NCBI RefSeq assembly: GCF_004010195.1
Contig: NC_057748.1
Coordinates: forward strand, 1,048,246 to 1,112,245
Direction of reading: 5' to 3'
DNA length: 64,000 nucleotides
Origin: Chiloscyllium plagiosum
Taxonomy: Eukaryota
The notes beneath the pieces were generated by a model. It was not told the DNA's origin. It saw only the letters and a list, made by a program, of their open reading frames with translations, and did not search any database. Every line of letters begins with the position of its first letter. The first letter of the stretch is position 1. Positions 9,155 to 61,879 of the stretch are shown piece after piece. The translations under genes and the position numbers were made by a program.

Positions 9155-9857
9155 GTAACCCAGATGTGTGCGCTCTTCTTGTCCTAGACCTACCAACGTC
9201 TTGGTATTTGTTTGAGATTTGTGTATATTCATTTCTGAGCCTGCTGTGTATTCTTTTCAAACATTTATGAAATCTGCTCATGTGATGTACAGACTGAACA
9301 AACATTATACATGCGGTAAAGCTCAGCCTGATGATATATTATGGTTGAAGTTCAGTAGTTGAGGGTGTACTCCCATTTGTGACTTTATAAACACTGTACC
9401 CGAAGATCAGACTTGCTGCCCGCTTATAGACTTCAAATGAGGGAAGAACTGGGGTTCAGTACGTGTCAGCATATATAAAAATGTTTGTTCTGAGAATGCT
9501 CCTCCAGACATAGCCTAGTTTACTTAGACATTGTATGAGTATTTTAAGTATTTTCCCTTTCATATTATGGAAATTCTGGTGACAACATGCATTAGTCCAT
9601 TATTCCATGGACCTGAACAGTAAGGCACTGCAATCCTAAAGAAGTTCATTGTGGTGAATTATTGTTGTATTATTTGATTCCTTTGGGTTTGTTTGAATAA
9701 TCTACATGATGAAGTAAACCGAATTGGTCCAATGATGGTAGCTGTCAATTTTATTTATTTAAAGAATCAGGAGTTTGATCGCTCTCATAAAGTACTTGCC
9801 GTTTTTTGGTAATAGTATATTTATAACTTTCCTATGGGTGGTGTACTATACAAATAT

Positions 9858-10392
9858 TCAAAGTTTGGGTGAAGATTTGTAGCTCGGGTGCTCGTTGTTG
9901 TGGTTCTGTTCGCCGAGCTGGAAATTATTGTTGCAAACGTTTCGTCCCCTGTCTAGGTGACATCCTCAGTGCTTGGGAGCCTTCTGTGAAGCGCTTCTGT
10001 GGTGTTTCTTCTGGCATTTATAGTGACCTGTCCCTGCCGCTTCCGGTTAGTATCCTTAGTAGCCACACACGCAGACGACAAGCAACATGAATTCGACTGG
10101 GACAACACTACCATTATAGGGCAAGCCAAACAAAGAACAGCCAGGGAATTCCTAGAAGCATGGCACTCATCCACAAACTCCATCAACAAACACATCGACC
10201 TGGACCCAATATACCGGCCACTACAGCGGACAGCTGAAACTGACAACCGGAACCGGACAGGCCACTATAAATGCCGGAGGAAACACCACAGAAGTGCTTC
10301 ACAGGAGGCTCCCAAGCACTGAGGATGTCACGTAGACAGGGGACGAAACGTTTGCAACAAAAATTTCCAGCTCGGCGAACAGAACCACAACA
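9858..10392 (+). mobile_element. Penelope-like element remnant: inverted pLTR, GIY-YIG C-terminus, pLTR
   Basis: About 150-bp inverted repeats (9894-10048 and 10245-10394); HADDKQHEFDWDNTTIIGQAKQRTAREFLEAWHS is PLE endonuclease-like; flanking duplication actatacaaatat at 9845-9857 and 10393-10405. Confidence 0.85.
10316..10355 (+). ncRNA. minimal hammerhead ribozyme motif in a Penelope pLTR (second copy on the - strand at about 9933-9972)
   Basis: gca-CTGAGGA-t-GTCAC...GGGAC-GAAA-CGT-T-tgc: conserved core, stem II, palindromic ACGT stem III and a 3-bp stem I. Confidence 0.7.
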
Positions 10393-11029
10393 ACTATACA
10401 AATATATTTTTAACTTTTCATTCTAACTGCACTTAATATTCTAGGTATCCAGATTTTATTTATAATGTAGGCTGTGATGTTGTCTTTCATTTGTAATATT
10501 TTCATCAAATAAGGGATGGAATGTTACAGTAAAATATAATTGCACTACTTTTGTTGCATCTGTGGCACCTTTTACAATCTCAGCATGGCCCAAAGTGTGT
10601 TGCAATCAGTGAAGTATTTCAGCAATAGTTTGGTAGTACAGAAATTCGGTACTATTTTGTTGAAGTTTTTAATCTTGAACTCTCCAGGATCATTTGCAAG
10701 AACACCAGTTTAAGGATAATACCAACATTTGCACTCTATGAAAGGAGAGTGCTGATTTGTTGGCAAGTATGTTATGACTGGTAGAGTTTTCCAATGCAGC
10801 TACTGTAGGTGTCGCTAAACCCAATCAATTGTAATGGTTCAAGAAGGCAGCTCATCACCACCTTCTCAAGGAGCAACTAGGGTGGCAATATATTCTGACC
10901 CAGTCAATGATACCCACATTCCATGATGATTTTAAAAGGTCTAGTCCAACAAAGGATAAACATGTAAAGAAACTCAACAGGTCTGGCAGCATCCATAGAT
11001 AGAAAGCAAAGTTAAGTTTCAACATTGGG

Positions 11030-11840
11030 TTCTGAGCATCTCTTCCACTTCCCGCTCCTCCGCCCTTGAGCCCCGCCCCTCCAACCACCACCAGGACAGA
11101 ACCCCACTGGTCCTCACCTACCACCCCACCAATCTCCATGTACAGCGCATCATCCGCCGTCATTTCCGCCAAGGCCCCTGCCTCCTCTACATCTCCTGAC
11201 AGTGCAGCGAGAAATGTCAACATGTGTGAGGTGCTCAGGTACTAAAGTGGGTCTTGAACTCTTAACCGCTGTCTCAGGGAAAGTGTGCTACCACTGAGAT
11301 AAAGGACAATTTCCTCCATGTTTAGGTCTTCCGCGGCGTTGGAAAGTTTGACTTTGAAAGATAAAAACCCATGACAATTCTGCAAATCCCTGCCTTTGAT
11401 CAGTGTCATTAAATAATACAGCAGATGCCCACAGAACGTGATTTGAGACTGCGGTGTTATTCACTCCATTGTCACTGCTGTTTTCCAACAGCTCAAAGTC
11501 ATTTAATAACTGAGTCATTTGTCTCAGTCAAATCCATCGAATTCAGCACCGCCTTCCTAACCTGAGATCTTCTTCCCGCCCTCTCCGCCCCCACCCCAGT
11601 CTGACCTATCACCCTCACCTTGACCTCTTTCCACCTATCACATTTCTGACGCCCCTCCCCCAAGTCCCTCCTCCCTACCTTTTATCTTAGCCTGCTGGAC
11701 AAACTTTCCTCATTCCTGAAGAAGGACTCATGCCCGAAACGTCGATTCTCCTGTTCCCTGGATGCTGCCTGACCTGCTGCGCTTTTCCAGCAACACATTT
11801 TCAGCTCTGATCTCCAGCATCTGCAGACCTCACTTTCTCT
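11030..11840 (+). mobile_element. Penelope-like fragments ending in a hammerhead-bearing pLTR (11711-11840)
   Basis: PLVLTYHP-like PLE linker at about 11100; CTGAAGA-AGGAC-TCAT-GCCC-GAAA-CGTC at 11716-11743, followed by the repeat tail gatgctgcctgacctgctg...ctccagcatctgcag. Confidence 0.65.
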
Positions 11841-12769
11841 TCTGAGGAAGGGTCACTTGACACAAAATGTTAACTGCTGCCAGACCGACTGATTTTCATT
11901 AGCAACTCCTGCTTTTGTCTTGGATTTCCAGCATGTGCAATGCTTTGTTTTGTTTTTAAAATTTAAGATTCTGTCTGCGCTGCTTACTCTTGGAAAGTGT
12001 AGTTCTTCTAATACTGTGTCGATGTTACATTGCAAACTTTTGAATGGTGAGGAATATTTAGGGCTTTTTGGGGCCTTTATCTTCAAGACATTTAAGCAGT
12101 ATTTAGGTGAATACTTGAAACACCATCAGGTAGACCATAAGAAATAGGAACAGGAGTAGGCTGCTCAGCCTATAGAACCTGTTAGTTACTCAATAGTCTT
12201 GTGATAATCTGATACTCCTCACTTCCACCTTCCTACCTTTCCCAGTAACTGTTGATCTCTCCCAGTGACTGAAGATACAACGCTGGAAAAAGGGGTGAGG
12301 ATAGTCCTGGTCGCCCTGCTCGAGTAAGGGTGTTCTTAAATTGGAAAGGGTGCAGAAAAGATATACAAGGATGTTACTAGGACTTGAATTATAACGAGGA
12401 TCTGGGAGCTTTTTCCCTGGAATGTAAGAGGCTGAGGGGCCTTTTTTAAGAGAGATTTGCAAAATCATGAGTATAGATATGGTGAATATCAACCTTTCAC
12501 TCGGTAGGGAGGTTCAAACCTACAGGGCGTAATTTTAAGGTAAGAGTAAAAATATTTAAAAGGGCTGTAAGAGGCAGAGATTGGTTAGTATATGGAATGA
12601 AATGCTAGCTCGGGTCTTTGTTCCGGTGGGCGGGGGTTGGAAGGAATATGTACCAGTTAGTTGGGGGGTGGGGTGCGGCGGAATGTCCCGATGAGGTGGT
12701 TTGGGGTGTGGGAGGGGACATATGTCAAGGTGAGGGAGCTGTGTGTCCTGGGGGGAGGGGAGGGGGAGG

Positions 12770-13150: not shown

Positions 13151-13204
13151 ACGTTTTACTCTTGTTTTGAAATTTCATCCAAAACCTCCACCACCCCCCA
13201 CTAC

Positions 13205-13721: not shown

Positions 13722-14827
13722 CATGTTCCCAACCCCCATGCTCAAGAAATCACCCCCATCTCAAGGGACTGTCCCCCAATTCCTCCTCCCCTCCCGAGCC
13801 CGCCTCCACAGGACTGTCCTTTATCCGAGTAGTCCCCAGGGCATTCCCCTAGCACCTGGCCCCCAATGCTCATTGAATGGGATTGGGATCAGCCACTGCC
13901 ATCCGACCTCTTCCCACGCCAGTTGGTGAGACCTGACTCCAGGGGACCCAGGGAGGGCATTGGGAGCGTGGGATCCATCCTGAGCTCCCAGCCCTGGGGG
14001 AGAGGGGTACCTGCCTTAGACCCCCAGCTCTAAGTACAATCTTTGGGAAGCTCGGTTTGATAAAACAGTATTTTCTGACACCATCTCGGTCTGTCTGCAT
14101 CTCATTCTCTGTGAACATATGTTTACATTCCAGTCACTGCACGTTCACCGGGCAGTTTTAGCATGTTTTTTTTAAGTTTAGGGAAGGCAAGAGTTGATAC
14201 TGATGCACAATAAATTATTATTACTTGGCACAGAATGAATAGCTTCCTTTTGTGGCAGAGACAGATATAAATAAATACACGGATTGCAGGAAAAGCTCAG
14301 CAAGTCAGCGTTTGTGCAGAGAAATCACGGTTAACATTGCGGGTCCGGTGACCGTTCCTCAGAAAAGAGACATAGATTCTCGTTAAGCAAGGAGGTAAAA
14401 GATTTTGAGTGGAAAAGTAGGGTTGAGATTACAGTCAGATAAACCAGGACCTGTTAGGCGGAACAGGATCGAAGGGCCGAATGGTGTGCTCCTGTTCATA
14501 TCCATTTGTTACAGTAATGCAGAAGACAGAAGATATATAAAGTTACATTTTTATGGCGTCAGATTCCAGCTCTCAGGCCTTCGCATGTAAATAACTTCGG
14601 CTTTTACGGGCGATTCGCCAGATTTTACCGGCTCGTACTCAAGGTCGTGAGCAAGATATGCAGTTGTTTTTGGTTACAAGTGAAACTAAACGAGGTTTAA
14701 GACGGATAGAAAATCATGAAGTTACATTGGTGATCGCCCAACCCAACCTACAGTGATGTTACCAGCAGTGTTACCGTCTCCGTCCATTCCAATACAACTT
14801 GTTAACGCTTTCATTTCCCCCCAATAG

Positions 14828-19177: not shown

Positions 19178-19457
19178 TCTCAACCAGCATCTTGCTCAGT
19201 TGCAGTAAGACTTCCCTAGTCTTTCTTGAAGTAAGGGCCAACTGTGTGGAGTTTGCACCTTCTCCCCATGCCTGCATGGGTTTCCTGCAGGTGCTCCATT
19301 TCCTCCCACAGTTGAAAGATATGCAGGATAGGTGGATTGGCATGGGAGGTGCAGGGTTGCACGTATAGGATAGAAGGAAGGAGTGGATCTGGTTGGGATG
19401 CTCTTCGGAGGGTTGGTGTGGACTCGATGGGTTGCTTCCACACTGTTGTGATTCTAT
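19178..19457 (+). mobile_element. partial V-SINE within old CR1 debris (about 18990-20100)
   Basis: tgtgtggagtttgcaccttctcccc...ttcctcccacag core shared with the SINEs at 28681 and 52290. Confidence 0.65.
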
Positions 19458-22210: not shown

Positions 22211-22534
22211 GTAAGTCCTTTTGTTTTTTGATTTGTTTTTCTCTTCTATTTACATTATTTCCCAGTCTTTTACTCTCTCAGTAGTTTGTTAGGTTCCCTA
22301 TTTCACTCTCTCTTTATTTTAAACAACCTCTACTGTAGGGTAGTTGTGTGCGTACAAGTTAACTGGAGCATTGTGAGTCACCATGGGTTTAAGTCCCAGT
22401 TCCTTCTTGAAGTAATGTTAGAGAATCAGCTGGCATACATTTCCAAATGCTCACTATTCTCTTTGCCTAGGAAAATGAAAATGCCTAAAGTTCAGTCTAT
22501 TCTTATTCTTACCTTGGTTATCTATAAATAGTGA

Positions 22535-22820
22535 TGGAAATGTGTTGCTGGAGAAGCGCAGCAGGTCAGGCAGCATCTAGGGAACAGGAGAAGGGGAAAT
22601 GAGGAAACTGGTGAAATCTGAGTTCATCCCTTGTGGTTGGAGGGTTCCTAGGCGGATGATGAGGCGTTCTTCCTCCAACCGTTGTTTCGCTGTGGTCTGA
22701 CGATGGAGGGGTCCAAAGACCTGCATATCCTTGGTGGAGTGGGAGGGGGAATTGAAATGTTGAGCTACAGGGTGGTTGGGTTGGTTGGTCCGGGTGTCCC
22801 AGAGGTGTTCTCTGAAACGC
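22535..22820 (-). mobile_element. Penelope-like fragment (GIY-YIG C-terminus and pLTR tail)
   Basis: Reverse strand reads FREHL...HPVAQHFNSPSHS...LEEERLIIRLGTLQPQGMN, followed by the same pLTR tail as at 11750-11800. Confidence 0.75.
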
Positions 22821-24824: not shown

Positions 24825-26790
24825 GTAGGTCAACTTTTTTTTCTAGTGAGTAAAACAAAGAACTGTGGATGCTGAAGATCTGAAACAAAATCAGAACATG
24901 CTGGAGAAACTCAGCAGGACTCAAAACGTTGCGCTGCTTTCTCTCTCCACAGATGCTGCCAAACCAGATGAATTGCTGGTTTGCTGGAAAAACTCAGCTG
25001 GTTTGGCAGCATCTGTGGAGAGAGAAAGCAGAGTCAATGTTTCAAGTCCTGCTGACTTTCTGCAGAAATTTATATGAGTAGTTTGCAGGAGTGATATTGC
25101 TTTTTAAATAGAAATTGGACAAATTCTCAGCTGCTTGCAAATATCATCTTATGCACCTATCCTTTCCTCTTCCCACCATTCCCAACTAGACAACTTCTTA
25201 AGGACCAGCTAAGATGGCTTCTTACATAAAAGCTCCATGTAATAAAATCAATGTTTCAATTCCAGTGTGTCTTTTCAAATTCAGAAAGTCAGATGAAGGG
25301 ACAAGGTGTGTGATAAAGGACATCACCGAGGTTGAAGAGAGAAACCAAGATACATTAAAAGTGGTATTAATTTGGCTGATGGCTGAGGTTTTAAACATTC
25401 CATGGATGAAGGGAGAACCTAAAGATGATATGAGGCTCCACTGGTAGTCACAAGTCGGACTAGGCCTCACCTGGGCCTTCATTGTGTGGCAGTCTTTGTA
25501 CCTGCATTAACTTAAATGATTATTTAAGTAGAAAAATGCATAGAATTATGGGGAAAAGGCAGTAGATTGGCACCAATCCAGAGAACTGGTGCAGACACAG
25601 TGGGCTGATGACATTCTGTGAATTAGACAAGAAAAACTGGCAAATGCCTTATGGGAGTGCGCTGCTCAGATATGCACCCAAACCTGAACCTCACTCAAAT
25701 TCCCTAGCAGTATGCTGTAATTTGAATCATATATTCACCTTCTCATTGGGATTAGTCTTTTGCTTACCATCCAAGCTGCCCAGTCTGGCAGTTAAGACTG
25801 AATGAATGAGCACATGTGTCTGTACTGACTCTGTGAATTTGTGAAAAGCTATAAAAGCTGCTGCCTCATTTGTTTTTTCTGATCACTCCCTTCTGATCAT
25901 GTACAAATGAGTGTGCCCAATTAGATGGTATACTCCATTCTTACCAAATCAAATTTGAATGCAGTGACAAGTCGGAGAGTGTAGTTGGAACTTAGTAGGA
26001 ATAAGACTATAGCAGTGCAGAGAAGTTGGAAAAAGACAGGAACTATTGAGATAAAGATAGAATGGAGACAAGACATGAGAGAACAAGGCTTTCTTTGAAT
26101 GTTATCATTGTTACTGAAGATGGTCCTGGTTATGGGTCAATATATTATTTAATGCCACCATTTAAGCTGTCTTCAAGGGGAGCAGAATCCAAACTCTAAA
26201 ATAGGAACCTGCATTCCCTTACCTGATGCCCACATGGATGTGAGTTTCTGTGAGGGGCAGTAGGTCATGGAATCTCCCTTACTTGGTCTTCCACTGAATA
26301 AACCTATTAGAGAATTGACTGTTCTTGTTGAGGGACAAATTCAACTCCACTATTTTCATTTGGGAAAACTCCAAGGGTATTCACTGGTAATTTTACAATC
26401 TCGAGGGAGTTGCAGAATAATGGGAAGCTATTTCAATTAGCTTCCCATTTGTTCACTTGCAACCTTCAACCAAGAAAGTAGAATAATGAGACCTAGACTC
26501 TTTGACATGGTCTCAAGCTGATCCTGGAACTAGAAGCTGCAAAATTTCAAAATTTAGTCATTAATCTTCAAAATTGATTGGGATCTCTTTGCCAGGATAC
26601 TTTTTCTTTTGTTAATATTATGCTTATCAGCTGAGAATGAGGCAGTCTCTATTGTAGACTCCGCTGTCAGTATCAAACACTCTAAGCTCAAACAATACAT
26701 GACTGAGAGCAAAGCTTCAATTCTCCCCCCACACCAATATTCATTCATTGTAAACTCATAAAAAGTAACTAACACCATTTGTGTCTGTAG

Positions 26791-27003: not shown

Positions 27004-27419
27004 GTAAGGAGGAAGAGAGCTGTCAATGTCCTCCTCAAGCTGGATGGACTGTTTAAATTGCTGTTGTGAAACACTTGGATCAATACTCTCCTTACTTAAT
27101 CAACAACTATTTCTTGCCCTCGGCCATCTGAACATTAAAGAGAGTTTCCTAATTGAAATGTCAGCCGATCTCAGCCTGACCTTTGGATTGTGGAGGGGAA
27201 GCAAAATCTGCCTGAATTTCACTGTCCACTGATGGGATTTGTTGATGTCAGGTGGGGGTCAAAATTTGAAGTACATCCAGATGAACAGAAGGACATGCCA
27301 GACAACAAGGGTTAACAAATTTAGGTGAAAGTGAGGATTGCAGATGCTGGAGATTAGACTCGAGAGTGTGGTGCTGGAAATTTAGGGACAGAGGAAACAG
27401 ACCATAAAAGAGCATTTAA

Positions 27420-29417: not shown

Positions 29418-29421
29418 CTAG

Positions 29422-38280: not shown

Positions 38281-38347
38281 CTGTAAAAATTAGAGGTACT
38301 ATTAAACACTCTTTTCTCTATCCATTTCTCCGTGCTGATTTTCAAAA

Positions 38348-38576: not shown

Positions 38577-38752
38577 CTGATTTTCAAAACCACCAACTCT
38601 GAGCCACAGAGCTCTCTACTGCCCTGTCTCAGGGGTCATTTAACATGTTTGTGTGTAAGTTCAGCACTCATCTGACCTACAGAGTGAGTGTGAGATCAGA
38701 TTAAAATTCAGTGCTTTTGAGGGAGGGGTTGAGAATGATTTCTGTAACATAC

Positions 38753-43900: not shown

Positions 43901-45351
43901 GACTTTTATTTCAAGCATAGCCCCTTCGTCAGGTGAAGTGATAAAGGAGCAGCGCTCCAAAAGCTTGTGATTTCAAATACATCTCTTGGACTATAACCTG
44001 GTGTCGTGTAACTTAAGTCATAGAGATGTACAGCATGGAAACAGACCCTTCAGTCCAACCCATCCATGCTGACCAGATATCCCAACCCAATCTAGTCCCA
44101 CCTGCCAGCACTTGGCCCATATCCCTCTAAACCCTTCCTATTCATATACCCATCCAAATGCCTCTTAAATGTTGCAATTGTACCACCTCCACCAGACTTC
44201 TGACTTTGTCCACCCCCCGTCATCTCCACATCAAAATTATTACTAAATTCAAATTCCAGCAATCTGCCATGGCTGGATTTGAACCTGCATCCCCAGAACA
44301 TTACCTGGATCTCTGGATTAATGATATAATATTAATATCACTAGGCCATTACCTCCCCTGTCCATATTTTAATATTCCTTTTTTAGAAGCAAGTGTCTAA
44401 TTTCATTTTCTTGGAACCATTGAAACTGGTGGCAAGAATTTTAAACAGAAACTATAAACCATAGAACAGTGCAGAAAGCTCACACAAACTACAAATCGAC
44501 ACCAAATTAATCCCATGATCCGTTCATAATTTACTTAACCCATATCTGGATATGCGAATGTTACAAGTAATGATAAGAAGTTAAAAAAAATGCAGTAAAA
44601 GGGAATGGGTAGTGCAGTGGTAGTGTACCTATTTCTGAACTGGGAGGTCTGCATTCAAGTCTCACCTGCTTCAGAGGTGTACAACAACATCTTAGAGAAG
44701 GATGATTAGGTAATAAATGTGAAGCATCAAAGGGGTGTGATTACAAAACAATCTGATGTTAGGAGAACCAAGTGGACGTGTTCTGTGGACTTGGATCTCG
44801 TTTCCCAGCCATTCATATTGCTTCAGATTTTGATTTGATTTGAATTGAACAGAATCATCAGCCCCCTCCCAGTTTGGTATACACAGCACTTCATGTTTCA
44901 GTAAAATTGGATTTACTAATCTTCTCACAGAGCTTCCCATTCAATATCTCAGGAGCACATGTTCGCTAATCGACTCAGTTCCTGATGATCCCAATTAGCA
45001 GCAGTGAATCCAAAAAGCTCCTGATGGACAGATACACTTGGATTAGGATTACTGCTACAGGCTGTCACTTGCAAGCCTGACTGTCACTGACACAAAAAGA
45101 TGGAACACATTGGAAATACTCAGGAAATCAGGCAGCAGGAGGAATTCCAGTCTTTACCATCTTCTGATAGACACACGGCTGATCAGTGGGAATTTCAGAT
45201 ACAGGCACTGCAGGGAAGGTGTATTCCTCTAAGTAGTCCTGAAAACCATAATGGAAACAAATCTGCAAAACGTGCTACAGCTTATCATCTGAAGTGAAAT
45301 CATAGACAAGTTCTGAGAATTAAACCCAATATTGCCGCTTCACTGAGCAAG

Positions 45352-45485
45352 ATTGATTTGGAGGTTCCAGTGTTGGACTGGGGTGTACAAAGTTAAAATT
45401 CACACAGCACCAGGTTATGGTCCAACAGGTTTATTTGAAAGCACTAGCTTTTGGAGCGCTGCTCCTTCATCAGGTGGTTGTTGTA
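45352..45485 (-). mobile_element. Penelope-derived mini-element with a hammerhead core
   Basis: Reverse complement reads caaccac-CTGATGA-AGGAGC-AGC-GCTCC-aAAA-GCTA-gtg; same family as 37300 and 52709. Confidence 0.75.
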
Positions 45486-46434
45486 TCCTTGGCATGTTTT
45501 GCATTTCTACACAACAAACAGACTCCCCACAAATTCCCTGGGGAATCTCAGTGGAATTATGAAACAGTGGGACAAATAGAGTTGTGAACAAATTCTCGGT
45601 TAATGCTTTCATTGTTCATGAGCATTTCAACAATACAAGATTCTTTGGGGATGCGACAGGAGATGTTATTTCCCCTTGTGGGAGCGTCTAGGACCAGAGG
45701 CATAATAAGGAGTCAGCCATTTAAGACAGAAATAAAGAGGAAGTTCTTCTCTCAGAGAGGATGAGTCAGTGGAATTCTTTACTGGAGAGTTGTTGAGGCT
45801 GGGTCATTAAATACATTCAAGACTGAGATAGAGAGATTTTAGTCAGGAAGGGAATCGAAAGTTATGGGGGAAAGGCAGGAAAGTGGAGTTATCAGATCAG
45901 CTTTGAATGATACAGCAGACTTGATGGGCTGAATGGTGTAGAATCCTAAAATGTCTACAGTGCAGAAAGAGGTCATTTGGCCCATCAAATCTACACTGAC
46001 CCTCTGAAGAGTATCCAGACTCACCCACACACCTTTTTAAACTATGGCTACCCCACCAAACCTGGACTGCACCATTCATACATCTTCTGGTCTGATTTCA
46101 ATATTTGTGAATCTTGAAATCAGCATTTGACCCTTCATTGTTAATTGTTGATATTATATAAAAACTGGCAAGTGACCAAATTTAAGTCAGTAAATGTGGG
46201 ATTGCACTGACATTCCACTGACTGGTCGCTGAGCTGAAGGGTACTGAAGGGTACCAGGATCCCAACACTGCAACCTCAAGGAGAACAATCAGGGGCATTG
46301 CAAATCCTCTCAAGATCAGCTGCTCAGGTCCCAGGAAACTGACTAAACTGAAGTCACGTAATTGATAGTCATTCAATACCAATGACATCTGTACATTACA
46401 AACATCATCAGCTTGAGAAGTCCCGCACTTTCAA

Positions 46435-46697
46435 AGGGTCAGTACCAAGGGAATTCTGCACTGTCAGAGGGTCAGTGCTGAGGGAGTGCCGCACTGTCGG
46501 ATGGTCAATACTGAGGGGATGCTGCACCGTCAGAGGGTCAGTACTGAGGGAGTGCCACACTGTCAGAGGGTCAGTGCTGAGGGAGTGCTGCACTGTCGGA
46601 GGGTCAGTGCTGAGGGAGCGCCGCACTGTCGGAGGGTCAGAGCTGAGGGAGCGCCGCACGGTCGGAGGGTCAGAGCTGAGGGAGCGCCGCACTGCAG
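46435..46697. repeat. 33-bp minisatellite (about 8 copies)
   Basis: Unit gagggtcagtgctgagggagtgccgcactgtc(g/a); gives the 11-aa periodicity of the overlapping ORFs. Confidence 0.9.
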
Positions 46698-46824
46698 GAT
46701 AGATTGCTTCCTGTGACAATGTTCTGTCTATCTGCCAATATTTCAAATGATGTCTGCAAGTTTGTATTCTGAGCCAATTCTTATTCTTTTATTGAAAAGG
46801 GGATGAAAGTATCACTTTACTTAC

Positions 46825-48050: not shown

Positions 48051-48267
48051 CATGTCTCTGAGAGATTGGTTCATGCGATATCTGGCCAAGTCACTTTGTA
48101 AACAGTTGGTAACAAATCCAGAATAATGCTGCTCAGGCGACTCTATTTTACTGTGTTCCTGCGAGAAGATGAGTAACTGATGGAGATTGCCAGAGACCGT
48201 GGTGATATCAGGGCTGACCATTTATCAAAAAATCAATCCAGAGCAACATTAATTTCACAAATTGACT

Positions 48268-48510
48268 GACAGGTAGCCCCTCTGACAGTGCAGTATTCCC
48301 TCGCTGTTGGACAGGTAGCCCCTCTGACAGTGCAGTATTCCCTCGCTGTTGGACAGAGCCCCTCTGACAGTGCAGTATTCCCTCGCTGTTGGACAGGTAG
48401 CCCCTCTGACAGTGCAGTATTCCCTCGCTGTTGGACAGAGCCCCCCTGACAGTGCAGTATTCCCTCGCTGTTGGACAGAGCTCCTCTGACAGTGCAGTAT
48501 TCCCTCGCCA
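48268..48510. repeat. minisatellite of about 38-41 bp (about 6 copies)
   Basis: Unit ccctctgacagtgcagtattccctcgctgttggacag(gt)agcc. Confidence 0.9.
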
Positions 48511-48745
48511 TTGGTTGGAGCTGTCATCTTAGACTCAGTATCTGTCTGGCAGTGGGATCAAAACAGATGACCGTCCGCTCCACAGCACCAGCTGACTCAG
48601 GAAAGAGCCATGCAGCAAACAAACTGATCCATGCAGATGTTCCTAGAACAGGAAATGGCTCTGGATAAATTCAAACTTCAGCAGTTCATGGAAGAATATA
48701 AACATGGGACTGGAAGGAAATACAGACACTGAAATCATCTGATTT

Positions 48746-49285: not shown

Positions 49286-49904
49286 TCTTTCGATGCCATC
49301 CAACCTGCTGAGTATTCCTGACATTTTCTGTTTTGTATTTTCCAATGCTCACCATTTGGTTCGGGGGGGGAGGCTGAACTCAGTCTCAGGTGAACTCTCC
49401 TCCAACTTATCTGAGAGCCAGGTTTAGTCAAGACAATCGCTTTGGAATTTTTAAAATGCCAACAGGTCTTGCAGAGAGAGTGATAACTCCATGGCAGAGT
49501 ACATCCAGGCTGAAGAAACAAGCAAAATGCTGAAACCAGTTATTTATTACATTATACAGCATTATTTGAATTTCCGGAGGTTTTTGCTATAATTGTCAAG
49601 GGGATTGTTCAGGCCAACATTGAGATAAAATGCAAACAAAACTACAGATGCTGGAAATCTGAAAGATTGCTGGAGAAACTCCGCGGGTCTAGTAGTCTCT
49701 CTGGAGAGAGAAAGATTCTATAGAGCTGCGGAGTTTCTCCAGTAATACCTCTTTGACTCTAAGCTGGTGGGGCTCCTTCTACCTTCGTTCCCAGGACAGT
49801 CCCAGAGTCACAATGGTCCCAACACGACGGCAGGCTGCAGTGTCCTGACCGTCCGCTGGATGGCAGACGTGAGACGGTCTGCAGTTCTCGTTGTAGCCGT
49901 GGGA

Positions 49905-50556
49905 GGCGGCTGTGAGGCCGGGCTGTGGTTCCCCTGGTGTCCGCAAGGAGCGGGTGTGAGACCAGGTTGCAGTTCCTCTGGTGGCCTCGGGGAGCGGGTA
50001 TGAGACCAGGTTGCAGTTCCCCCGGTGGCCACAGGGAGCGGGGCTGAGCCGAGTTGCAGTTCCCCCGGTGGCCGCGGGGAGCGGGTGTAAAGCCGGGCTG
50101 CAGTTCCGCCGGTCGGCGCGGAGAGCGGGTGTGAGACCGGGTTGCAGTTCCCCCGATGGCCGCGGGGAGCGGGTGTGAGACCAGGTTGCAGTTCCCCCGA
50201 TGGCCGCGGAGAGCGGGTGTGAGACCAGGTTGCAGTTCCCCCGATGGCCGCGGGGAGCGGGTGTGAGACCAGGTTGCAGTTCCCCCGATGGCCGCGGGGA
50301 GCGGGTGTGAGACCAGGTTGCAGTTCCCCCGATGGCCGCGGGGAGCGGGTGTGAGACCAGGTTGCAGTTCCCCCGATGGCCGCGGGGAGCGGGTGTGAGA
50401 CCAGGTTGCAGTTCCCCCGATGGCCGCGGGGAGCGGGTGTGAGACCAGGTTGCAGTTCCCCCGATGGCCGCGGGGAGCGGGTTTGAGACCAGGTTGCAGT
50501 TCCCCCGGTGGCCATGGGGAGCGGGGCTGAGCCGGGTTGCAGTTCCCTCGGTGGCC
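49905..50556. repeat. GC/CpG-rich 44-bp minisatellite (about 14 copies)
   Basis: Unit gggagcgggtgtgagaccaggttgcagttcccccgatggccgcg; central copies identical or nearly so. Confidence 0.95.
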
Positions 50557-51200
50557 GGTGGTGTCGCGCGTTCCCCTTGGTACAGGCACGCCGCCATTTT
50601 GTGACCGTGTCTCAGCCGTGGCCCCGGATCCGGCTTCTCCCGCTCGGTAAGTTCCGACGCCGCCACCCCGGGCCTCGCTTCTCCACGGTTCCAATTCCTT
50701 CTGCACCCTGGTGGCCATCTTGTGCCCGAACCTGGCTCATTGGTCGCAGGTCAGTGCTGCCCGGACGGGGCTCTCGAGCAGAGAGAATGGCAGAGCCTGA
50801 GGCCTGGTCCCTGGTCAGTTTGAGGGGCTAAGGCGGAGGGAGGGGGTGGTGTTGTGGAAATGGAGCGAGGCCAAGCCTTGGGTTTGGCATTGACTCCGAT
50901 ACCGTATACTTCTGGATCCTGAGTGTGAGCAACACGATTCAGCCCTTTATGCCAGCATGGTGTCGCCTTGGCAACGGTGCTTTCCAATCTGGAGTTATTG
51001 TTACCGAGAGCACCGCCGATGGGGGATGGGGGGGGGGGGGTCGGGTCGTCCCACTACCCGTGGCTCCGTCCTCAGCCGGTAACGGCAGGGACCCGTGCTG
51101 TAGAAACGCCAGCACACAAAAAAAGGAAGGCCTCGGCCCCTCAACCAAAATCACCCGAAAACGGCCACTTCTCACCCGTCCCCCGGCGCTGCCTCAGTGC
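50557..51200 (+). promoter_or_regulatory. CpG-island promoter and non-coding first exon of an unidentified + strand gene
   Basis: YY1 motifs CCGCCATTTT (50591) and GCCATCTT (about 50714); donor CTCG|gtaagt at 50646/50647; X-box GTCGCCTTGGCAAC at 50962-50975. Confidence 0.6.
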
Positions 51201-52289: not shown

Positions 52290-52573
52290 GTGGCTCAGTG
52301 GTTAGCACTGCTGCCTCACAGCGTTCAATTCCCGCCTCGGGCAACAGTTTGTGTGGAGTTTGCACATTCTCCCCGTGTCTGCGTGGGTTTCCTCCCACAG
52401 TCCAAAAATGTGTAGGTTAGGTGAATTGGCCATGCTAAATTGTCCGTAGTGTCAGGTGAAGGGGTAAATGTCAGGGAATGGGTCTGGGTGGGTTGCTGTT
52501 TGGAGGGTCATTGTGGACTTGTTGAGCTGAAGGGCCTGTTTCCACACTGTAAGTAATCTAATCTAAAAAAAAA
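52290..52573 (+). mobile_element. V-SINE (HE1-like)
   Basis: tggctcagtggttagcactgctgcctcacagc, V-domain core, taatctaatct plus A tail. Confidence 0.85.
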
Positions 52574-52806
52574 TGCCAGTTTTCAGGGCAGAGTTGGAGA
52601 TTTTACTGGGAACTGAAATGAACAACAGTCTTATCAATGGATCTGTGATTACCTATAGCATATATCAATGAGAGCTGTGATTTGGTTCACACACACACTG
52701 TAAAATATGATGTGCAGGAACCGCTTTTGGACTAGGGTGGGCAAAGTTAAAAATCACACAACACCAGACTATAGTCCAAAAGGTTTATTTGGAAGCGTTT
52801 GCTTTC

Positions 52807-55800
52807 TGTTATGACATGCAGTAAATCACTCAGCTAATTTAAACCCGACACACAGAGAAGCTCATCTCGCGCTGTAATCTATTAAATTTCGAAAGGCAAA
52901 AAACTATCTCAGAGGTCGCTATTTAAAGTAAAAATTAACAATTTTATTCTTTAAGTCCAAAAGAGAACTTTAGATAACTATTTACAACACCTTTCTCTTA
53001 AACCTATCTTTTACCTGCCACTCTATAATACTGGTCTGATTTAAAAAAGAATCCCATTTAAATATTACAGAAAAAATCACGTTTCAAAACCAGTCAACTT
53101 TGTTGATTCGCCTTTATAGATTTTCCTCTGTAGACTTTTCTAGATCAGCTTTTCTTTGGTCTTCTGCTGCTCAACTTTTCTGATGGACAGATACTTTTCA
53201 GAGAGCTATTCAGCTAGCAGTCTATACTTGTTGATGTTCTTGACAGTTCTCCCCCTAACTGTTCAAAATGTCTGGTTTTATACCTCAGCATTAGATAATT
53301 TTGTTGGTTTGATGTCATCAAAACATTCAATTCAAATTCGATTGGATTTCGGTATCTGAGGCATAATTTAAACTGATTGGCAGAATTTGAATTTGTTTTT
53401 GTTCCATGGCATTTGAATCCCAGCGATTTGTTTCAACCAATGTTACATTTTTAAATTGTTCAGTACACTGTGCTTTCAGTCAGTCCTTGCTAGCTTCCTC
53501 TCTCTCGAAGGTATAGTACACACCTACACCTTCATAACACCTCCCTCTTAAGAAAACTTGAACGATCATAATGAAAAGATGGCTTCATTTTTTTCTCTAT
53601 TCCTTAACCACATTACTATGACATACATAAGACTTTAAGTTCGTATTAATTTCTTCCCACCTATATAACATTGAATAGAAATCAATCTCATCTATACTTT
53701 CAGTTAAATCCATGATAACGCATCTGCGATTACATTCTTACAACCCGCTAAATGTATGATTTGTAAATTAAAACTCTATAACATAAGACTGCAATGAAAT
53801 AGTCTCATATTCTTGTCTTTAAAGCGTTCCCAGAATATAAGAGGATTGTGATCCGTCTCCGACACATTGTTCGTGACGTACACATTAAAATGTTGTAAGG
53901 CCAGAACCAAACTCAATAGCTATTTTTCGATCGTGGAGTATTTCCTCTGGTGGATGTTGAATTTCTTCGAAAAGTGCTCAACTGGCAGTTCAATCCCATC
54001 ATCTTCCTGTAGCAGTACAGCTCCAACTCCTGTGTCACTAGCATCGATGGCAAGTTTGAAGGTTTCAAAAAGATTGGTGTGGCTAAAACTGGTGCAGTGG
54101 TTAATATTGCTTTTAACTGGTCGAATGCCTCCTGGCATTGTTCTGTCCACCGAAACTTTGTGTTGTTCTTTAGCAAATCGGTTAATGGTGCCACTACACT
54201 GCTGAAGTTTGGAACAAACCTCCGATAGAATCTGCTTAGTCCCGAGAATCGAAGCACTTCTTTCTTTGAGGTTGGTTGTGGAAATTCCTCGATGGCCTTC
54301 ATCTTTGTGTTCCATGGGGTCAACCTTCCATGTCTGATGTTATGTCCCAAGAACGTCATTGCTGCTTTCATGAATTCAGTTTTATTTAAGTTTATCACCA
54401 GTTTTGCTTCTTATAGGCGTTCAAAGAGTTTAACAACTGTACCACGTGATCTTTCCAGGACTTAGTAAAGATCACTACATCATCCGGATGTAACCCAGCC
54501 ACAACTCTGTTCATAAGTTTTTGGAATATGGCAGATGCATTCTTCATTCCAAAGGACATCACTTTGAATTGATATAGCCCATTTGGGGTTACAAATGCAG
54601 AAATTTCTTTTGCCATCTCTGATAAAGGTACCTGCCAATAACCATGCTGTAAGTCCAACTTGGTGATGTAACTGGCTTGTCCAACTTTCTCCATATAGTC
54701 CTTCAATCTTGGTATTGGATATAAGTCCAATTTTGTAATGGCGTTGACCATCTGATAATCCTCGCCAAATCGTTAAGTCCTGTCCAGTTTGAAAGCTAAG
54801 ACAATTGGCAAACTCCACTCATGCTACCTTGGTTCAATGATATCCTCACTGAGCATGGCCTCCACCTCCTAGACCTGTCCGGCTTTGAATGGATTAAGCC
54901 GATAGGGGTGTTGTTTTATTGGAACAGTATTCTCTATGTCTACCTCATGCACAATAGCATTATTCCTCCCCATCTGTTTCCTACATATGTCCTCATACTG
55001 CAGTAACAAACCTTTTAACTGTGTTCTATGCTCCTATTCCACTCCTCAAGGACTTCATTTTTTAACATATTTTGAGGCACATCAAACTCCACAATATATG
55101 GATTTGATCCTTCACTCTGCGGGGCAGTAACTAACACATGTTTCTCCAGTTCTTTCTTCTAGTTCTCTGGAGGGGACCTACACAATCAATTATTACCCGC
55201 GTGAAAGGTTCTTCGAATGCAGAAATTGGCAACAAAGGTGCTGGTTTTATTACCATCTGTGGCTTACGTACCATTTGGTATATATGACACTATGGCAAAA
55301 GTTAACCACATCCTTGTGCATTCCCAACCAATAAAAATGTTTTTGTATTTTAGCCTGAGTCTTTCATACCCCTAGGTGACCTCATACAGGTAGTTCATGT
55401 GCTACCTATAACACTTCCTGTCTGTATGCTACTGACAATACAATCTGGTGCATTCAGCCCATTTTACCTCCGCACTAACCTGCTGTGGTCTCCATTTTCG
55501 TCTTAGGATTCTATCTTTCAGATAATAACCCTCAGGAATATTCTCCGCCTGCTTTTTGGAATACACAGCCACATATACATCTTTTATCATCTTGCCTTTC
55601 TGTTGCAAGTGTCTTAGCTCTTAAGGACTAAACACTTCAGTCTGACCCTCCTCCTGTTCAGGTTTTTCCTGCACCATTATGTCAAATAGGTAGTCTCTTA
55701 ACTGAACCTCAACTCCTTCATCTTTCTCTTTAGTTTTTGCTTCATGATGTGACTTATGATTTTGGGATCTTGTTACTACACAGTCTGGGAAAATACCAGA

Positions 55801-58800
55801 GTATTTTTCTTTTAACTCCTCAGTTTCTTGTTCTTCCTTGGGCTTCTCCACAACAAGAGATGTCACTCCCACCTTGGACCCTGCTAAATCGTTCCCAAGA
55901 TCAAACTGGATTCCTGGAACTGACACTCTTCAATCACTCCCACTGTAACTTCCCCAGTCTTGAGTTCGCACTCCAACCTGATCTTACATAGGGGAATGCT
56001 AAATTTCTGTAAATCGTTCCCAAGATCAAACTGGATTCCTGGAACTGACACTCTGTCAATCACTCCCACTGTAACTTCCCCAGTCTTGAGTTCACACTCC
56101 AACCTGATCTTACATAGGGGAATGCTAAATTTCTGTACATCTATCTGACAAATTACCACTTTCTCGGGTAACGTCAGAAAGTGTGCAGATTCACTCATCT
56201 CTTACTAGTAGAGACCGGTTAGATCCTGTATCTCTCAAAATTTCTTGTGTCGTTGCCTGCCCCTCTTTCTGAGTAAACTTTACCCATCGAGGTGAATTCT
56301 TTATAGAGATCAGGTACTAACTCCATACCCAGCCCTTGCCGAGGCTGTGCACTCACCTGCAGCTCCTTGGCTCTTCTTGGGGTTTCCTTTACTACTTTCA
56401 CTAATGCCACTGGCTTAGCTTCTTTTACCACATCTTTGCCCATTATGCCTTTCTTTAACGGCCAGCACTGTGACTTTACATGTCCCCCTTTACCACCATG
56501 GAAACATCTGAGGCCTTTCACCTACTTGCCACCCTCTTGGGCTTCTTTTTTAACCTGTTGTAAACACTTAGAAGTGTTCTCTATTCTTTGTTTCTTGTGT
56601 AGGATCTCCCCTTCTCCCAATTTCTATCCCTCACAGACAAAATGCTGCCCGGAATCTTGGCTTATGTACCAACATGTATTCATCTGCGAATTCTCCTGCC
56701 CTTCTCATTTCCTGAACTTCCTGTGAATTAAACTACCCCAGCAGAATAATCTGTCTTAGAGCCTCATAGGTCTTATCTATCTTTAATGCCCACACCCATC
56801 AATCAAAGTGACTATGTTTAATTCTTTTGAACTCAAAATAAATCTGACCTGGTTCCTCCTTTTGTGTTTCTGACCTGCTGTGTGTTTGCTTCTGGTACCA
56901 ATTCATAAGCACTTGAAATAGCCTGTTTGACCACTTCATAATCTCTTGACCCCTCATCTGACAGCATGGCAAATACCTCACTAGCTCTGCATACCAGTTT
57001 AGTCTGAACTAGCATTACCCATGAATCCTCGGATCACCCCGTCTGCCTCGCCAATTTTTCAAATGAAATGAGGAAGGCTTTGATATCTTTCTCATCAAAA
57101 TGTGGCAGAGTTTTGACATATTTGTATATATCACTACCTTCTCTTTTAATCTCCATCCTGTTAACTTGACTTTGCTTACTAAGTTGCAACTTCTCAAGTT
57201 CAAATTCTGTCTCCTTTTGCTCAGCTAAGAACCTTCCATCTCTTTCACCTTTCTTTTCTCTCCTCTCTCTTTCTTCTATTTCTCTTTCCCTTTTTTCTTT
57301 CTCTCTCTTTGCTCAACTAAAAACCTCCTCTCTCTTTTTCCTCTCTCTCGCTTTGTTTATCTTCTAACTCCATTTTCCTCAATTGTAATTTTTTTTTTAA
57401 CTCTACTGTACTTATCTGTTTCTCTGGCATGCCTAAGTGTTTGAGTAATTCCCTACAATTTCAGCTTTGTTTTTGTCCTTGGTTAAACCCAATTCTAATC
57501 TCTTTGCTAATTATTAAAGTATGTCTTTACTTTTCTTTCTAAACTTTCTTGGCAAATTTGGGAATCATCTTCAAACCCCAGAACTTCTTTAGCAATTTTA
57601 ACAGCCATTTCTCTCACTTTTAATTGAACCAACCACAAGTAACCGAAATTAAACAAATTGTCCCCCACGTTTTATTTAAAGATCTAGGACACTAATCGGC
57701 AAGTGTTTAAATGTGCTGGGCTTTTGTCAAACCCCAAATCTATTCAAATCTGTCTAAATCTCAGACTGGGTCTGTCTAAGCCTGTTCACTTCACGAATCC
57801 GAGACCCAAACTGTTCAAATCCTGGCATGGAGCCCCCAAACTGTTATGACATGAGGTAAAACCCTCTGCTAATTTAAACCTGACACAGAGAAGCTCACCA
57901 TGCGCCATAAATCTGTTAAATTTTGAGAGGCAAAGAACTATCCCAGCGGTTACTATTTAAAGTAAAAATTAACAATTTTATTTTTTAAGTCCAAAAAAGA
58001 ACATTAGAGAGCTATTTAAAACTGCTTTCTCTTAAACCTATCTTGCCTCCCACTCTACAATACTGTTTGGATAAAAAAAAATTACGTTTCAAAACCAGTC
58101 AGCTTTGTTGACTTGCCTTTGTAGGTTTCCTCTGTAGATTTTTCTAGAGTTAAGGAGATGTCCAGCATGGAAACAGACCCTTCGGTCCAACCTGTCTATG
58201 CCCCACCTGCCAGCACCCGGCCCATATCTCTCCAGACCCTTCCTATCATATATCCATCCAAATGCCTCTTAAATGTTGCAATTGTACCAGCCTCCACCAC
58301 TTCCTCTGGCAGCTCATTCCATACACGTACCACCCTCTGTGTGAAAAAGTTGCCCCGTTGATCTCTTTTATATCTTTCCCCCCTCACCCTAAACCTATGC
58401 CCTCTAGTTCTGGACTCCCCGACCCAGGGAAAAGACTTTGTCTATTTACCCTATCCATGCCCCTCATAATTTTGTAAACCTCTATTAGGTCACCCCACAT
58501 CCTCCGACGCTCCAGTGAAAACAGCCCCAGCCTGTTCAGCCTCTCCCTATAACTCAAATCCTCAAACCCTGGCAACATCCTTGTAAATCTTTTCTGAACC
58601 CTTTCAAGTTTCACAACATCTTTCCGATGGGAAGGAGACCAGAATTGCACGCAATATTCCAACAGCGGCCTAACCAATGTCCTGTACAGCCGCAACATGA
58701 CCTCCCAACTCCTGTACTCAATACTCTAACCAATACAGGAAAGCATACCGAACGCCTTCTTCACTATTCTATCTACCTGTGACTCCATTTTCAAGGAACT

Positions 58801-59484
58801 ATGAACCTGTACTCCAAGGTCTCTTTGTTCAGCGGTACTCCCCAGGACCTTACCATGAAGTGTATAAGTCTTGCTAAGATTTGCTTTCCCACAATGCAGC
58901 ACCTCGCATTTATCTGAATTAAACTCCATCTGCCACTTTTCAGCCCATTGGCTCACGTGATCAAGATCCTGTTGTAATCTGAGGTAATCTTTTTCGCTGT
59001 CCACTACACCTCCAATTTTGGTGTCAACTGCAAACTTACTAACTTTACCTCTTATGCTTGCATCCAAATCATTTATGTAAATGACAAAATGTTCTAGGTC
59101 AGCTTTTCTTCGGTCTTCTGCACAACTTTTCTTACGTACAGGTACCTTTCAGTGAGCTATTCGGCTAGTAGTCTATACTTGTTGGTGTTCTTGGCAGTTC
59201 TCCCCCTAACTGTTCAAACTGTCTGGTTTAAACCCCAAAACATCAGATCATTTCATTGGTTTGATGTTATTTCAAATTTGTTTGGATTTTGGCACCTGGG
59301 GCATAATTTAAACTGATTGGCCGAATTCGAATTTGTTTTTGTTCCATAGCATTGGAACTCCAGCTACATGTTTCAGCCAAGTGTTACATTTTTAAATTGT
59401 TTAGTGCTGACTGTGTTTTCAGTCAGTCCTTGCTAGCTTCCTCTCTCTCTTGAAGGTACAGTACACACCTACACCTTCATAACA
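52807..59484 (-). mobile_element. decayed Gmr1-like Ty3/Gypsy LTR retrotransposon
   Basis: LTRs 57842-59484 (5') and 52807-53539 (3'), both TGTTATG...CATAACA; tRNA-Pro-like PBS (TGGGGGCTC) at 57838-57817; polypurine tract at 53540-53550; gag, zinc knuckle, protease LRDTG, integrase HH-CC and IDCVGPL, RT and RNase H remnants. Confidence 0.9.
58148..59091 (-). mobile_element. CR1 3' fragment inserted in the 5' LTR
   Basis: ORFs 58726-59067 and 58384-58698 are CR1 RT C-terminus; absent from the other LTR; ttctag duplicated at 58142-58147 and 59092-59097. Confidence 0.9.
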
Positions 59485-61879
59485 CTTTTGGGACGCTGCT
59501 CCTTCAGGTAGCTGTTTAGCAGGATCAGGGACACAGAATTTATAGCAATGCATTACAGTGTCATGCAACTGAAATTATATATTGAACAAACCTAGATTGC
59601 TGTTAAGTCTTTCATTTTTTAGAATGGGTTACAGGTTCGGTTCTTTAATATGTAAATCCCAGAATTTTTTTAACTCACATTCTCAAGATAACTTAAAGTT
59701 TTATAAAACAAAGTGACATCTCAGCTCAGATAGTGCATTAAAGGTATGCGGTTAGAGTCTGTCTGTATCCCCATCTTGAGTTGGACTGGTTCTATTTCCA
59801 AAGTAGGAATTTATAAAATATTGCGTGGATTGATTGTGCCTGCATTGACTGCTTGTAGATTATGTGCTTTTTGAGCAAAATAGAACATATCTGCAAATAT
59901 AATTCTGCAGATGCAAAACCCCCATAGACTTATATGTGTGTGTGCATGCATGAGAGACTGAGAGTGTGTGTTTGCATGTGTGCATACTTGGTAAAGTGTT
60001 TGTGAGTGTGATGGAGTATAAGCCTGTGACAGGGTGTGTGCATGGATGTGAGTGTGGAGGGTGTATGTATGTATATGTGTGTGTGTGTGAGAGCGTGTGT
60101 ATATGAGAGAGTCATGTATATGGGTGTGTGAGTATGTAAGAGTGTGTGACAGAGAGAGAGTATGGTACAGTGGGGTCACCTGTAATGTGACATGAACCCA
60201 AGATCCTGGTTGAGGCCATTCTCATGGGTTCTGAACTTAGCTATCAGCCTCTGCTCCATGACTTTGCGTTGTTGCTTGTCCTGAAGTCCGCCTTGCAGGA
60301 TGGTCACCCGAAGATCCAAGGCCGAATGTCCCTGACCGCTGAAGTATTCCCTGACTGGGAGGGAATACTTCTGTCAAGCAATCCGTTGTCGTAGCGTCTG
60401 CTTGGTCTTGCCGATGTACCATGCCTCAGGGCATTCTTGCCTGCAACATATGACATAGACAGCATTGCCCAAGCCTCATGAGTACCTGCCGCATACATGG
60501 TGGGTGTTGTCCCCACATGTAATGGTGTACATGTGGGGGCACCACCCACCATGTACACGGCAGGTATGCATGTGACTCGGCTAACCTTGTCTATCTCATA
60601 TGCTGCAGGCAAGGATGCCTTGAGAAATGGTACATTGGCGAGACCAAGCAGACGTTATGACTGCGGATGAATGGATACTGTACAACAATCACCAGACAGG
60701 GATGTCCTTTCCTAGTTGGGGAATACTTCAGCGGTCAGGGACATTCGACCTCGGATCTTCAGGTGACCATCCTCCAAGATGGATTTTGGAATATGCAACA
60801 ACGCAGGGTGGTCAAGCAGAGGCTGATAGCTCAGTTCCAAACCCATGAGAATGGCCTCAACTGGGACTTTGGGTTCATTCACAGTACAGGTGACCCCACC
60901 ACACTATTTGCTCTCTCTCTCGTGCGCACACACACACACCCTGTCACATGCTTCTACTTCATCACACTCTCTCAGACACTTTACCAAGCATGCACACAAG
61001 CAAACACACACTTTCTAACGCACACACCTCTCTTGCTCATGCATGCACACACACTTAGAAGTCTGAGGTAAATTTGCATTTGCAGAACTATTTTTGTAGA
61101 TATATTTTGCTCAAAAAACGTACACGTCTGCAGGCAGTCAATCCATGCAATATTTTGTAAATTCCTACTGTGGAAATAGAATCAGTTTGACTCAAAATTG
61201 GGATACAGACAGACTCTAACCTCACACCTTTAATGCATTGTCTGAGCTGAGATGTCACTTTGTTTTATAAAACCTTAAGTTATCTCAAAAATATGACTTA
61301 AATGAAGTTCTGGGATTTACATATTAATGAACCGAACCTGTAACCCATTCTAAAAGATGAAAGACTTAATGGCAATTTAGGTTTCTGTTGCATGACACTA
61401 ATCTTTTGCTATAAATTCTGTCTTATGATCCTGCTCCACAGCCACTTAATGAAGGAGCAGTGATCTGAAAGTTAGTGCTTCCAAATAAACCTGTTAGATT
61501 ATAACCTGGTGTTGTGTGATTTTTAACTGTAAAACATACCAATACACTATTTAAATGTCTAAAAATTGCAAATTATCTGTTAGTTTATTTCAGCATTACT
61601 TATGGGAGCTTGATGTTTACAAACTGACAACTGCTTTTTCTACATGACAGTAGTGACTGAACCTCAAAACAATAACATCTCATTGGCTGAGGTAGGATTT
61701 CCTGAAGCACTATATAAACAAATTCACTCTTTGGTCTTTTATCCAGTGTAGTATTTGTGTTTATTTAATAATATTCAGTAAAGCCAGTTCTGCTTACTTA
61801 CTGTTATTTGGTAAAGTGATTGTTTACTGAAGTAGTGAAAGTGAACTTCATTTGCTAGAGACAGCAGAGTTTAGAGATG

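Follow-up and report, generated by a model that had tools for sequence, protein, structure and literature searches.

How do the short, often palindromic insertions built around minimal hammerhead ribozymes arise that recur along a 64,000-nucleotide stretch of the Chiloscyllium plagiosum genome (forward strand of NC_057748.1, positions 1,048,246 to 1,112,245, RefSeq assembly GCF_004010195.1; the whole stretch is referred to below as the window, position 1 being its first letter)? A first-pass annotation had described them as a dense population of non-autonomous mini-elements, similar to retrozymes or miniature inverted-repeat transposable elements (MITEs), that are mobilised by the reverse transcriptase (RT) and the GIY-YIG endonuclease of Penelope-like elements (PLEs). 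Judged by their sequence, the repeated units, hereafter arms, represent the terminal 90–130 bases of retroelements of the Penelope-like type, which is a known kind of element. For most short arms of two families, A and B, we consider it probable that they are run-off complementary DNAs (cDNAs) of the leader of the transcript, with priming at the two nicks of the target and a head-to-head joint.

The abundance of the arms was estimated from an unbiased sample of 160 evenly spaced 10-kb stretches (1,544,964 non-N bases, ~1.54 Mb, of the 3.56-Gb assembly), in which arms were called with hidden Markov models (HMMs) of the families A, B, C and D. The sample contains 550 arms (A 297, B 75, C 140, D 38), corresponding to 356 arms per Mb and ~3.4% of the sampled bases, with at least one arm in 148 of the 160 stretches; extrapolation gives ~1.2 million arms genome-wide. 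The four minimal-hammerhead families are real: the ACGT/AGCT palindrome is present across all of them, and compensatory pairs in stems I and II are found between families, and within C and D (for A/B/C/D, stem I.1 is CG/CG/UA/AU, stem I.2 UA/AU/UA or CG/CG, and stem II.3 GC/AU/GC/CG). A strict minimal-hammerhead descriptor run on the first 80 stretches (0.8 Mb) and the window returned 39 matches, whereas each of 10 first-order Markov control sets gave 0; none of the 39 lies inside the window, where copies show decay or a stem II that is imperfect. No hammerhead match was obtained from Rfam at E values up to 10, and the families may already be named in Dfam or Repbase. Core boxes are intact in 168 of 306 core-spanning arms, and the U3-A8 core variant occurs in 8 of 63 C arms. 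Unconstrained cofolding yielded the predicted palindrome duplex for family D only, whilst for the RNA of an inverted pair the predicted structure is a single hairpin of −206 to −210 kcal/mol; as each strand of such a pair also carries just one sense arm, an inverted pair cannot give a dimer in cis. The first-pass annotation thus holds in part: hammerhead-like motifs are present at all 13 of the places it listed, its four or more families with a common core, palindrome and stem covariation are confirmed, the population is dense, as it had proposed, and the descriptor scan that it had suggested separates genome from controls. Its statement that most copies have lost the G of GAAA is true of 7 of its 13 listed arms but of only 98 of 448 sampled arms, in which G12 is lost; the attribution to CpG decay is supported by the changes at C11.1/G12 (CG>CA 82, CG>TG 97), as CA and TG in about equal numbers are expected of neutral CpG decay.

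Arms of families A, B and D form the 3′ tips of longer PLEs of the GIY-YIG type, two of which lie inside the window (59496–61530, family B; 9858–10392, family D). Of the 30 loci found with the GIY-YIG peptide of the former, 28 have a B arm downstream of the match and on the same strand, mostly at a distance of 400–900 nt, and GIY-YIG motifs are likewise found in the upstream frames of long A copies and at one D locus; the A and B matches (E 1.8e-4 and 1e-3) are weaker than the Pfam cut-off. Relatives of the A frame carry both RT and GIY-YIG, and its nearest named proteins are those of sharks and rays (Chiloscyllium punctatum, 84%; Rhincodon; Stegostoma). At the D locus L282, a 493-residue frame matches RVT_1 (E 1.4e-9) and continues into a GIY-YIG-type motif (the start of the endonuclease), with a D hammerhead downstream. 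The arrangement is that of endonuclease-bearing (EN+) PLEs, with RT and C-terminal GIY-YIG in one open reading frame (ORF), the hammerhead-containing pseudo-long terminal repeat (pLTR) at the 3′ end of the unit, an optional 30–40 bp tail, an inverted 5′-truncated copy and a target duplication. RT in cis was seen for neither A nor B at the loci examined, and family C, with seven upstream references, was not linked to any ORF within the 229 nt followed upstream; C has the same downstream motif as A. From motifs (in A and B, a cysteine motif that precedes the endonuclease), A, B and C are tentatively placed with Neptune and D with Poseidon. With positions numbered relative to hammerhead C3, an ATG frame in D stays open from +3 or +6 to the end of the tail. 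In A and C a similarly starting open ATG frame runs from ~+46 to the end of the tail and may be an ORF start or a protein-binding RNA motif. Two family A loci on different contigs (L065 and L089) have ~50 nt in common directly past the tail, possibly flanking DNA that was carried along.

The 3′ ends of the arms fall into two classes 30–38 nt apart (tailed and tailless) in all four families. Detected head-to-head pairs account for 250 of the 550 arms, which is an undercount because short inverted arms are missed; among 152 neighbouring arms, the orientation is head-to-head in 127, tandem in 14 and tail-to-tail in 11. Exactly one tail is present in 92 of 104 compact pairs, as compared with the 50% expected of independent choice in each arm (p 7e-17). 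Long-spacer pairs (>400 nt, 21/125) are left out of this count and, when added, give one tail in 103 of 125. In 64 pairs, the arm that reaches further in the 5′ direction is the tailed one in 24 and the tailless one in 25, and the two are level in 15. The 64 junctions comprise 38 with microhomology, 4 that are blunt and 22 with extra bases, and the central junction is distinct in 61 of the 64 pairs (loci picked by 5′ sequence are excluded from end and junction counts). Locus sets selected by tail cover family B only; 60-nt tail queries of A and D gave no returns, probably because their words are too common.

Target duplications flank 65 of 102 one-tail pairs as against 4 of 102 controls. From 429 arms tested, 125 duplication-bounded candidates were obtained (15 control hits), which after removal of duplicates, window copies and unclean junctions leave 88 clean events, tail-selected B loci included. 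Their duplications have a median length of 14 bp (range 11–23), although short duplications escape the score threshold and called ones are lengthened by chance matches, and 81 of the 88 insertions are ≤260 bp. The link to Penelope drawn by the first-pass annotation is supported, as are mobilisation by RT and GIY-YIG with duplications of ~14 bp, and recurrent boundaries. The 13-bp duplications that it reported are exact at 3 of the 18 window spans tested. Several of the copies that it named are not mini-elements and are described below.

Mates of a pair diverge by 10.3% from each other and by 6.5% each from their subfamily. Across 69 pairs, which still include pairs picked for a centre similar to that of a window pair, 57 arm variants are shared and 464 private, with no trend with spacer length, and the shared fraction (11%) is below the 21% (256/1248) of cross-locus near-neighbour controls, which indicates that the sources lie near the subfamily consensus and that the arms decay independently. 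Arm-to-arm gene conversion was rejected on the excess of private variants and the lack of a spacer trend, and decayed copies as main sources on the comparison with the cross-locus controls. A single master palindrome does not fit the tail polarity together with the diversity of junctions.

The 5′ ends of A and B arms concentrate in a band. Over all sampled arms, the end rate per 100 nt at risk in A is 2.69 within −22 to +12, as compared with 0.43 below and 0.62 above, and in B 3.33 as compared with 0.59 and 0.60, i.e. five to six times that on either side; the interval −10 to +12 takes in 101 of the 148 A and B ends from events bounded by duplications. The upstream edge of the band lies ~30 nt below a TATA-like box. 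Such a box occupies −35 to −38 in 64 of the 71 long copies of A, and in B, 30 of the 40 long copies have it at −36 to −40; an initiator (Inr)-like sequence lies at −4 to −9 in long A and B copies. These promoter-like calls follow the TATA and Inr consensus motifs. At least 40 nt of upstream sequence, and with it the putative promoter, is kept in 73 of 297 A arms. The D box is at −47 to −53 in 8 of 13 long copies, and D is mostly long, with 27 of 38 arms keeping at least 40 nt upstream. At −4 of family A, a G precedes the A in 8 of 15 arms as compared with 16 of 69 elsewhere (p 0.03), and in DNA contigs of run X15, joints into position 11712 carry G, AG or TTAAG in three of the 12 rows listed out of 36. 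Only three arms (A or C) start exactly at the predicted cut and there is no clear excess at +28; thus cleavage does not set the 5′ ends, and the ribozyme was rejected in that role. The idea of a spliced leader with an exon junction at the hammerhead was also rejected for B, whose short copies match the unspliced long pLTR.

The run-off origin that we favour for the short A and B arms would proceed as follows. A pLTR promoter, of which the TATA- and Inr-like motifs are the candidate parts, would set the start of the RNA where the hammerhead has its 5′ edge, and RT would start internally at one of two sites 90–125 nt downstream of the RNA start, from where it could copy only to the 5′ end of that RNA. 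Two cDNAs, one per site and nick, would meet at their 3′ ends via microhomology, and the resulting short copies would be without promoter and decay neutrally, ribozyme cleavage playing no part in setting their ends. Two cDNAs from two nicks would, without an added step, give pairs that have a single tail and in which the longer arm can be the tailed or the tailless one. A stricter version, to which we give somewhat less than an even chance, holds that a capped RNA starting at hammerhead stem I is copied by an RT dimer that primes both nicks at two staggered sites, runs off the cap (leaving the extra G) and joins the cDNAs, and that some million insertions record the process.

Several observations weigh against the run-off origin. 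The G signal is weak, its position was picked post hoc, and A arms ending at −1 also have G in 6 of 11; in B the extra G is not significant (3/6 versus 5/21, p 0.32). The 5′ ends form a 20-nt band with no spike, and D has no end excess (0.46 versus 0.48 per 100 nt, 38 arms) despite its TATA box. Poly(A) single-cell RNA reads of run X19 map to both strands with no pile of starts or ends, none from run X20 could be placed, and among the sequencing runs listed as containing the stretch none is catalogued as RNA. Missing upstream references of old subfamilies can mimic ends near C3; C is the family most affected, and its band may be a reference artefact. No master in which the pLTR continues into the ORF, as in the partial tandems of EN+ PLEs with a pLTR ahead of a full ORF, was recovered, the six loci examined all containing gaps, and none of 399 tail arms has a shared element-like continuation past the tail; long young copies often adjoin assembly gaps, which would account for the missing intact master. 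Finally, the promoter of Penelope in Drosophila virilis is internal and TATA-less, and an intron precedes the hammerhead there, so the layout proposed here is not general (PMC2377424, PMC4209133).

The same band might instead reflect ordinary 5′-truncated copies of the 3′ end of full-length RNA, with RT stalled or displaced at a folded hammerhead, whether protein-assisted or dimeric. This would suit a broad band overlapping both the core and the stem II base, and an RNA start that is not seen in reads, and 5′ truncation with an inverted copy is a known PLE pattern (PMC8557442). An RT travelling 3′ to 5′ would, however, meet stems I and II first, and yet the rate at +13 to +40 is only 0.43–0.59 per 100 nt; the upstream edge, moreover, keeps its ~30-nt distance from a conserved TATA-like box in two families of different spacing, and D has a hammerhead but no band. 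We consider stalling unlikely. Fold-back of one strand by self-priming, followed by endonuclease clipping of the tail from either arm, appears still less probable as the origin of the inverted pairs. Its simple form predicts a longer outer end for the arm with the unpaired 5′ part, against which stand the 24 and 25 pairs counted here, and it needs the extra clipping step, whereas the in vitro reaction cuts both strands and extends them from two start sites (PMC11167929); to its credit, palindromic junctions with microhomology are common (38/64), fold-back on an antisense template is a published model (Arkhipova et al. 2013, PMC3846280), and resolution of the tail by the endonuclease has been published too (PMC8557442).

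The class named by the first-pass annotation corresponds to dedicated non-autonomous masters of 90–250 bp, retrozyme- or MITE-like, or in a weaker form to promoter-bearing ORF-less copies serving as sources in trans. A MITE has a constant interior of set length, terminal inverted repeats that serve a transposase, and a duplication that is short and fixed. The insertions of the shark differ in having distinct junctions in 61 of 64 pairs, asymmetric ends and duplications of 11–23 bp. Their arms are collinear with ORF-bearing copies, head-to-head neighbours (127) far outnumber tandem ones (14), D is mostly long, and the low fraction of shared variants shows that decayed copies are not the main sources. 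Dedicated masters would accommodate the size of the clean insertions, the putative promoter kept by a quarter of A arms (73/297) and the many 220–240 bp pairs of similar centre returned by a window-pair query, although these were selected on that centre. A distinct class of this kind is thus not borne out, and we rate dedicated masters as having a slim chance; in the weaker form, ORF-less copies with a promoter may act as sources in trans. Animal non-LTR retrozymes (LTR, long terminal repeat), which include one from a chondrichthyan, are among the closest known systems, being non-coding, pLTR-derived, dispersed as monomers and equipped with a type I hammerhead; in the available part of that report they are defined as tandem hammerhead units, whereas here only 14 of 152 neighbours are tandem, and singles and inverted pairs are common (Li, Clavereau, Pollet 2026, 10.64898/2026.07.22.740005). 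Circular RNA of unit length is a further mark of non-LTR retrozymes; the RNA reads covered here are of the poly(A) single-cell type.

Minimal pLTR hammerheads, dispersed singles, opposite-strand pairs, inverted truncated copies and tails have all been published (PMC4209133, PMC8557442, PMC3846280). Metazoan PLE hammerheads were described mostly as single motifs or opposite-strand pairs 100–700 bp apart and read as probably truncated PLEs (Cervera and De la Pena 2014, PMC4209133). The motifs examined here agree with them in the CUGANGA/GAAA core, the extra base between 9 and 10.1, the G10.1-C11.1 pair, the palindromic 15/16 region, the U3-A8 variant and the occurrence as singles or opposite-strand pairs; stem I is 2–4 bp here. 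That study gives ~4,000–9,000 descriptor matches in coelacanth and Xenopus, a measure not the same as our 356 arms per Mb, and neither shark nor 5′-end mapping was found in the part of it available to us. The Anolis Poseidon element PAc offers a biochemical precedent: in vitro, the tail is set by a pair of internal sites at which RT starts, cutting and extension take place on both strands of the target, and hammerhead cleavage is dispensable (Frangieh et al. 2024, PMC11167929). The two 3′ end classes match these start sites and the PLE tail (PMC8557442), and the PAc ORF starts at stem II, comparable to the D frame from +3 or +6. Leader-only insertions and head-to-head pairs are neither treated nor explained in the sections of the PAc study at hand. 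PLE insertions are known to have an inverted copy at the 5′ end, a 30–40 bp tail on one end, palindromic junctions, 8–10 bp duplications and solo pLTRs (Craig et al. 2021, PMC8557442; Arkhipova et al. 2013, PMC3846280). The shark insertions share the inverted copy, the one-end tail and the palindromic junctions but differ in duplications that centre on 14 bp and in most units being ≤260 bp, and their numbers permit a count of arm polarity, which simple self-priming does not fit. Neither the leader run-off with priming at two nicks nor shark PLE mini-insertions were found in the main texts covered by the literature searches.

Within the window, the family HMMs identify 24 arms. The family D inverted insertion at 9858–10392, inferred to be Poseidon-like, is bounded by an exact 13-bp duplication (9845–9857/10393–10405) and consists of a tail-bearing minus-strand arm (C3 9969, extending to −79) and a tailless plus-strand arm (C3 10319, extending to ~−270) that includes the end of a GIY-YIG ORF at 10050–10232; the pair listed at 9935 and 10319 is accordingly no mini-element. 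Nor is the copy at 11716, the youngest of family A (11600–11839, plus strand), to which at least 116 nt of upstream pLTR remain attached; it has a TATA-like TTTTATCT at 11680–11687, an Inr-like TCATTCC at 11710–11716, the hammerhead C3 at 11716, a predicted cut after 11743 and a tail end at ~11836, and over 11600–11725 all 40 of 40 scored places are 100% identical. The motif at 61445 ends a 2-kb inverted, 5′-truncated family B element (59496–61530) with a pLTR, TATAAA at 61410–61415, a tailless end at ~61530, GIY-YIG-type ORF ends at 60661–60891 (plus) and, as a mirror copy, at 60191–60382 (minus), a broken hammerhead at ~61446 and a second near 59510 (minus). Pfam gave no match for the five window reading frames tested.

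The shorter copies include a family A head-to-head pair (38345–38581) with its tail on the minus-strand arm and an exact 13-bp duplication (38335–38347/38577–38589); its arms are 99% alike with common decayed CpGs, unlike most pairs, and may derive from a source whose core was dead, or result from local repair. A third exact 13-bp duplication surrounds a single tailless minus-strand family B arm (~37683–37767, span 37670–37782, duplication copies at 37670/37770). The family B pair at 37301–37497 joins a tail arm (minus) starting at +11 to a tailless arm (plus) starting at ~−6. The remaining listed copies are a decayed family C arm that has lost G12 (11840–11940, plus), a tailless C arm (14266–14364, minus), a single tailless A arm in a TG microsatellite (40568–40663, plus), a B arm (43938–44014, plus) and a single tail-bearing B arm (45354–45478, minus); cores are broken at 40572, 43940 and 61445. 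Seven sites lie beyond the earlier list, namely a family C arm fragment (10968–11021, minus) that by eye adjoins a short family A ORF-like piece at ~11030–11170, a family A fragment from downstream of the core (22530–22592, minus), a complex inverted cluster of three C arms (24862–25068), a family A tail fragment with a 9-bp duplication (27324–27380, minus), a C head-to-head pair (35367–35592, span 35355–35622) with a 14-bp duplication, two mismatches included, around 35367–35600, a C fragment (49641–49712, minus) and a tail-bearing B arm truncated within the hammerhead (52707–52808, minus).

Other features of the window comprise the exons of a WBP11-like gene at 2634–9154, the last of which (8690–9154) matches WW domain-binding protein 11 (E 1.6e-57) and the stop codon of which lies ~700 nt before the D pair at 9845. 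Broken frames at 53916–54772 (minus) match RVT_1 and RT_RNaseH_2 and are likely an old LTR retroelement. Decayed copies resembling long interspersed nuclear elements (LINEs), which we take to be CR1-like, occupy 135–1326, 5952–7941, 30548–33568 and 58384–59148, with 135–1326 and 30830–31999 being inverted copies of one family. A repeat resembling short interspersed nuclear elements (SINEs), presumably V-SINE-like, is present in three copies (19216–19445, 28733–28976, 52323–52540). Minisatellites at 46386–46715, 48233–48560 and 49790–50624 have periods of 33, 40–42 and 44 bp, and a 228-bp exact direct repeat (5177–5404 and 6491–6718, 1314 bp apart) is possibly an assembly duplication.

The origin of inverted, tailed PLE insertions has been called undefined in reviews (PMC8557442), and the copy number in this shark allows the outcomes of insertion to be counted. 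Priming on both strands accounts better than simple self-priming for pairs that carry a single tail and whose longer arm may be of either sort, and the 5′-end band suggests a start of transcription that is open to mapping. Pairs that are transcribed are predicted to form long double-stranded hairpins. If the stricter version of the run-off origin is true, a single step would explain why PLE insertions have a tail and an inverted structure and why mini-insertions occur.

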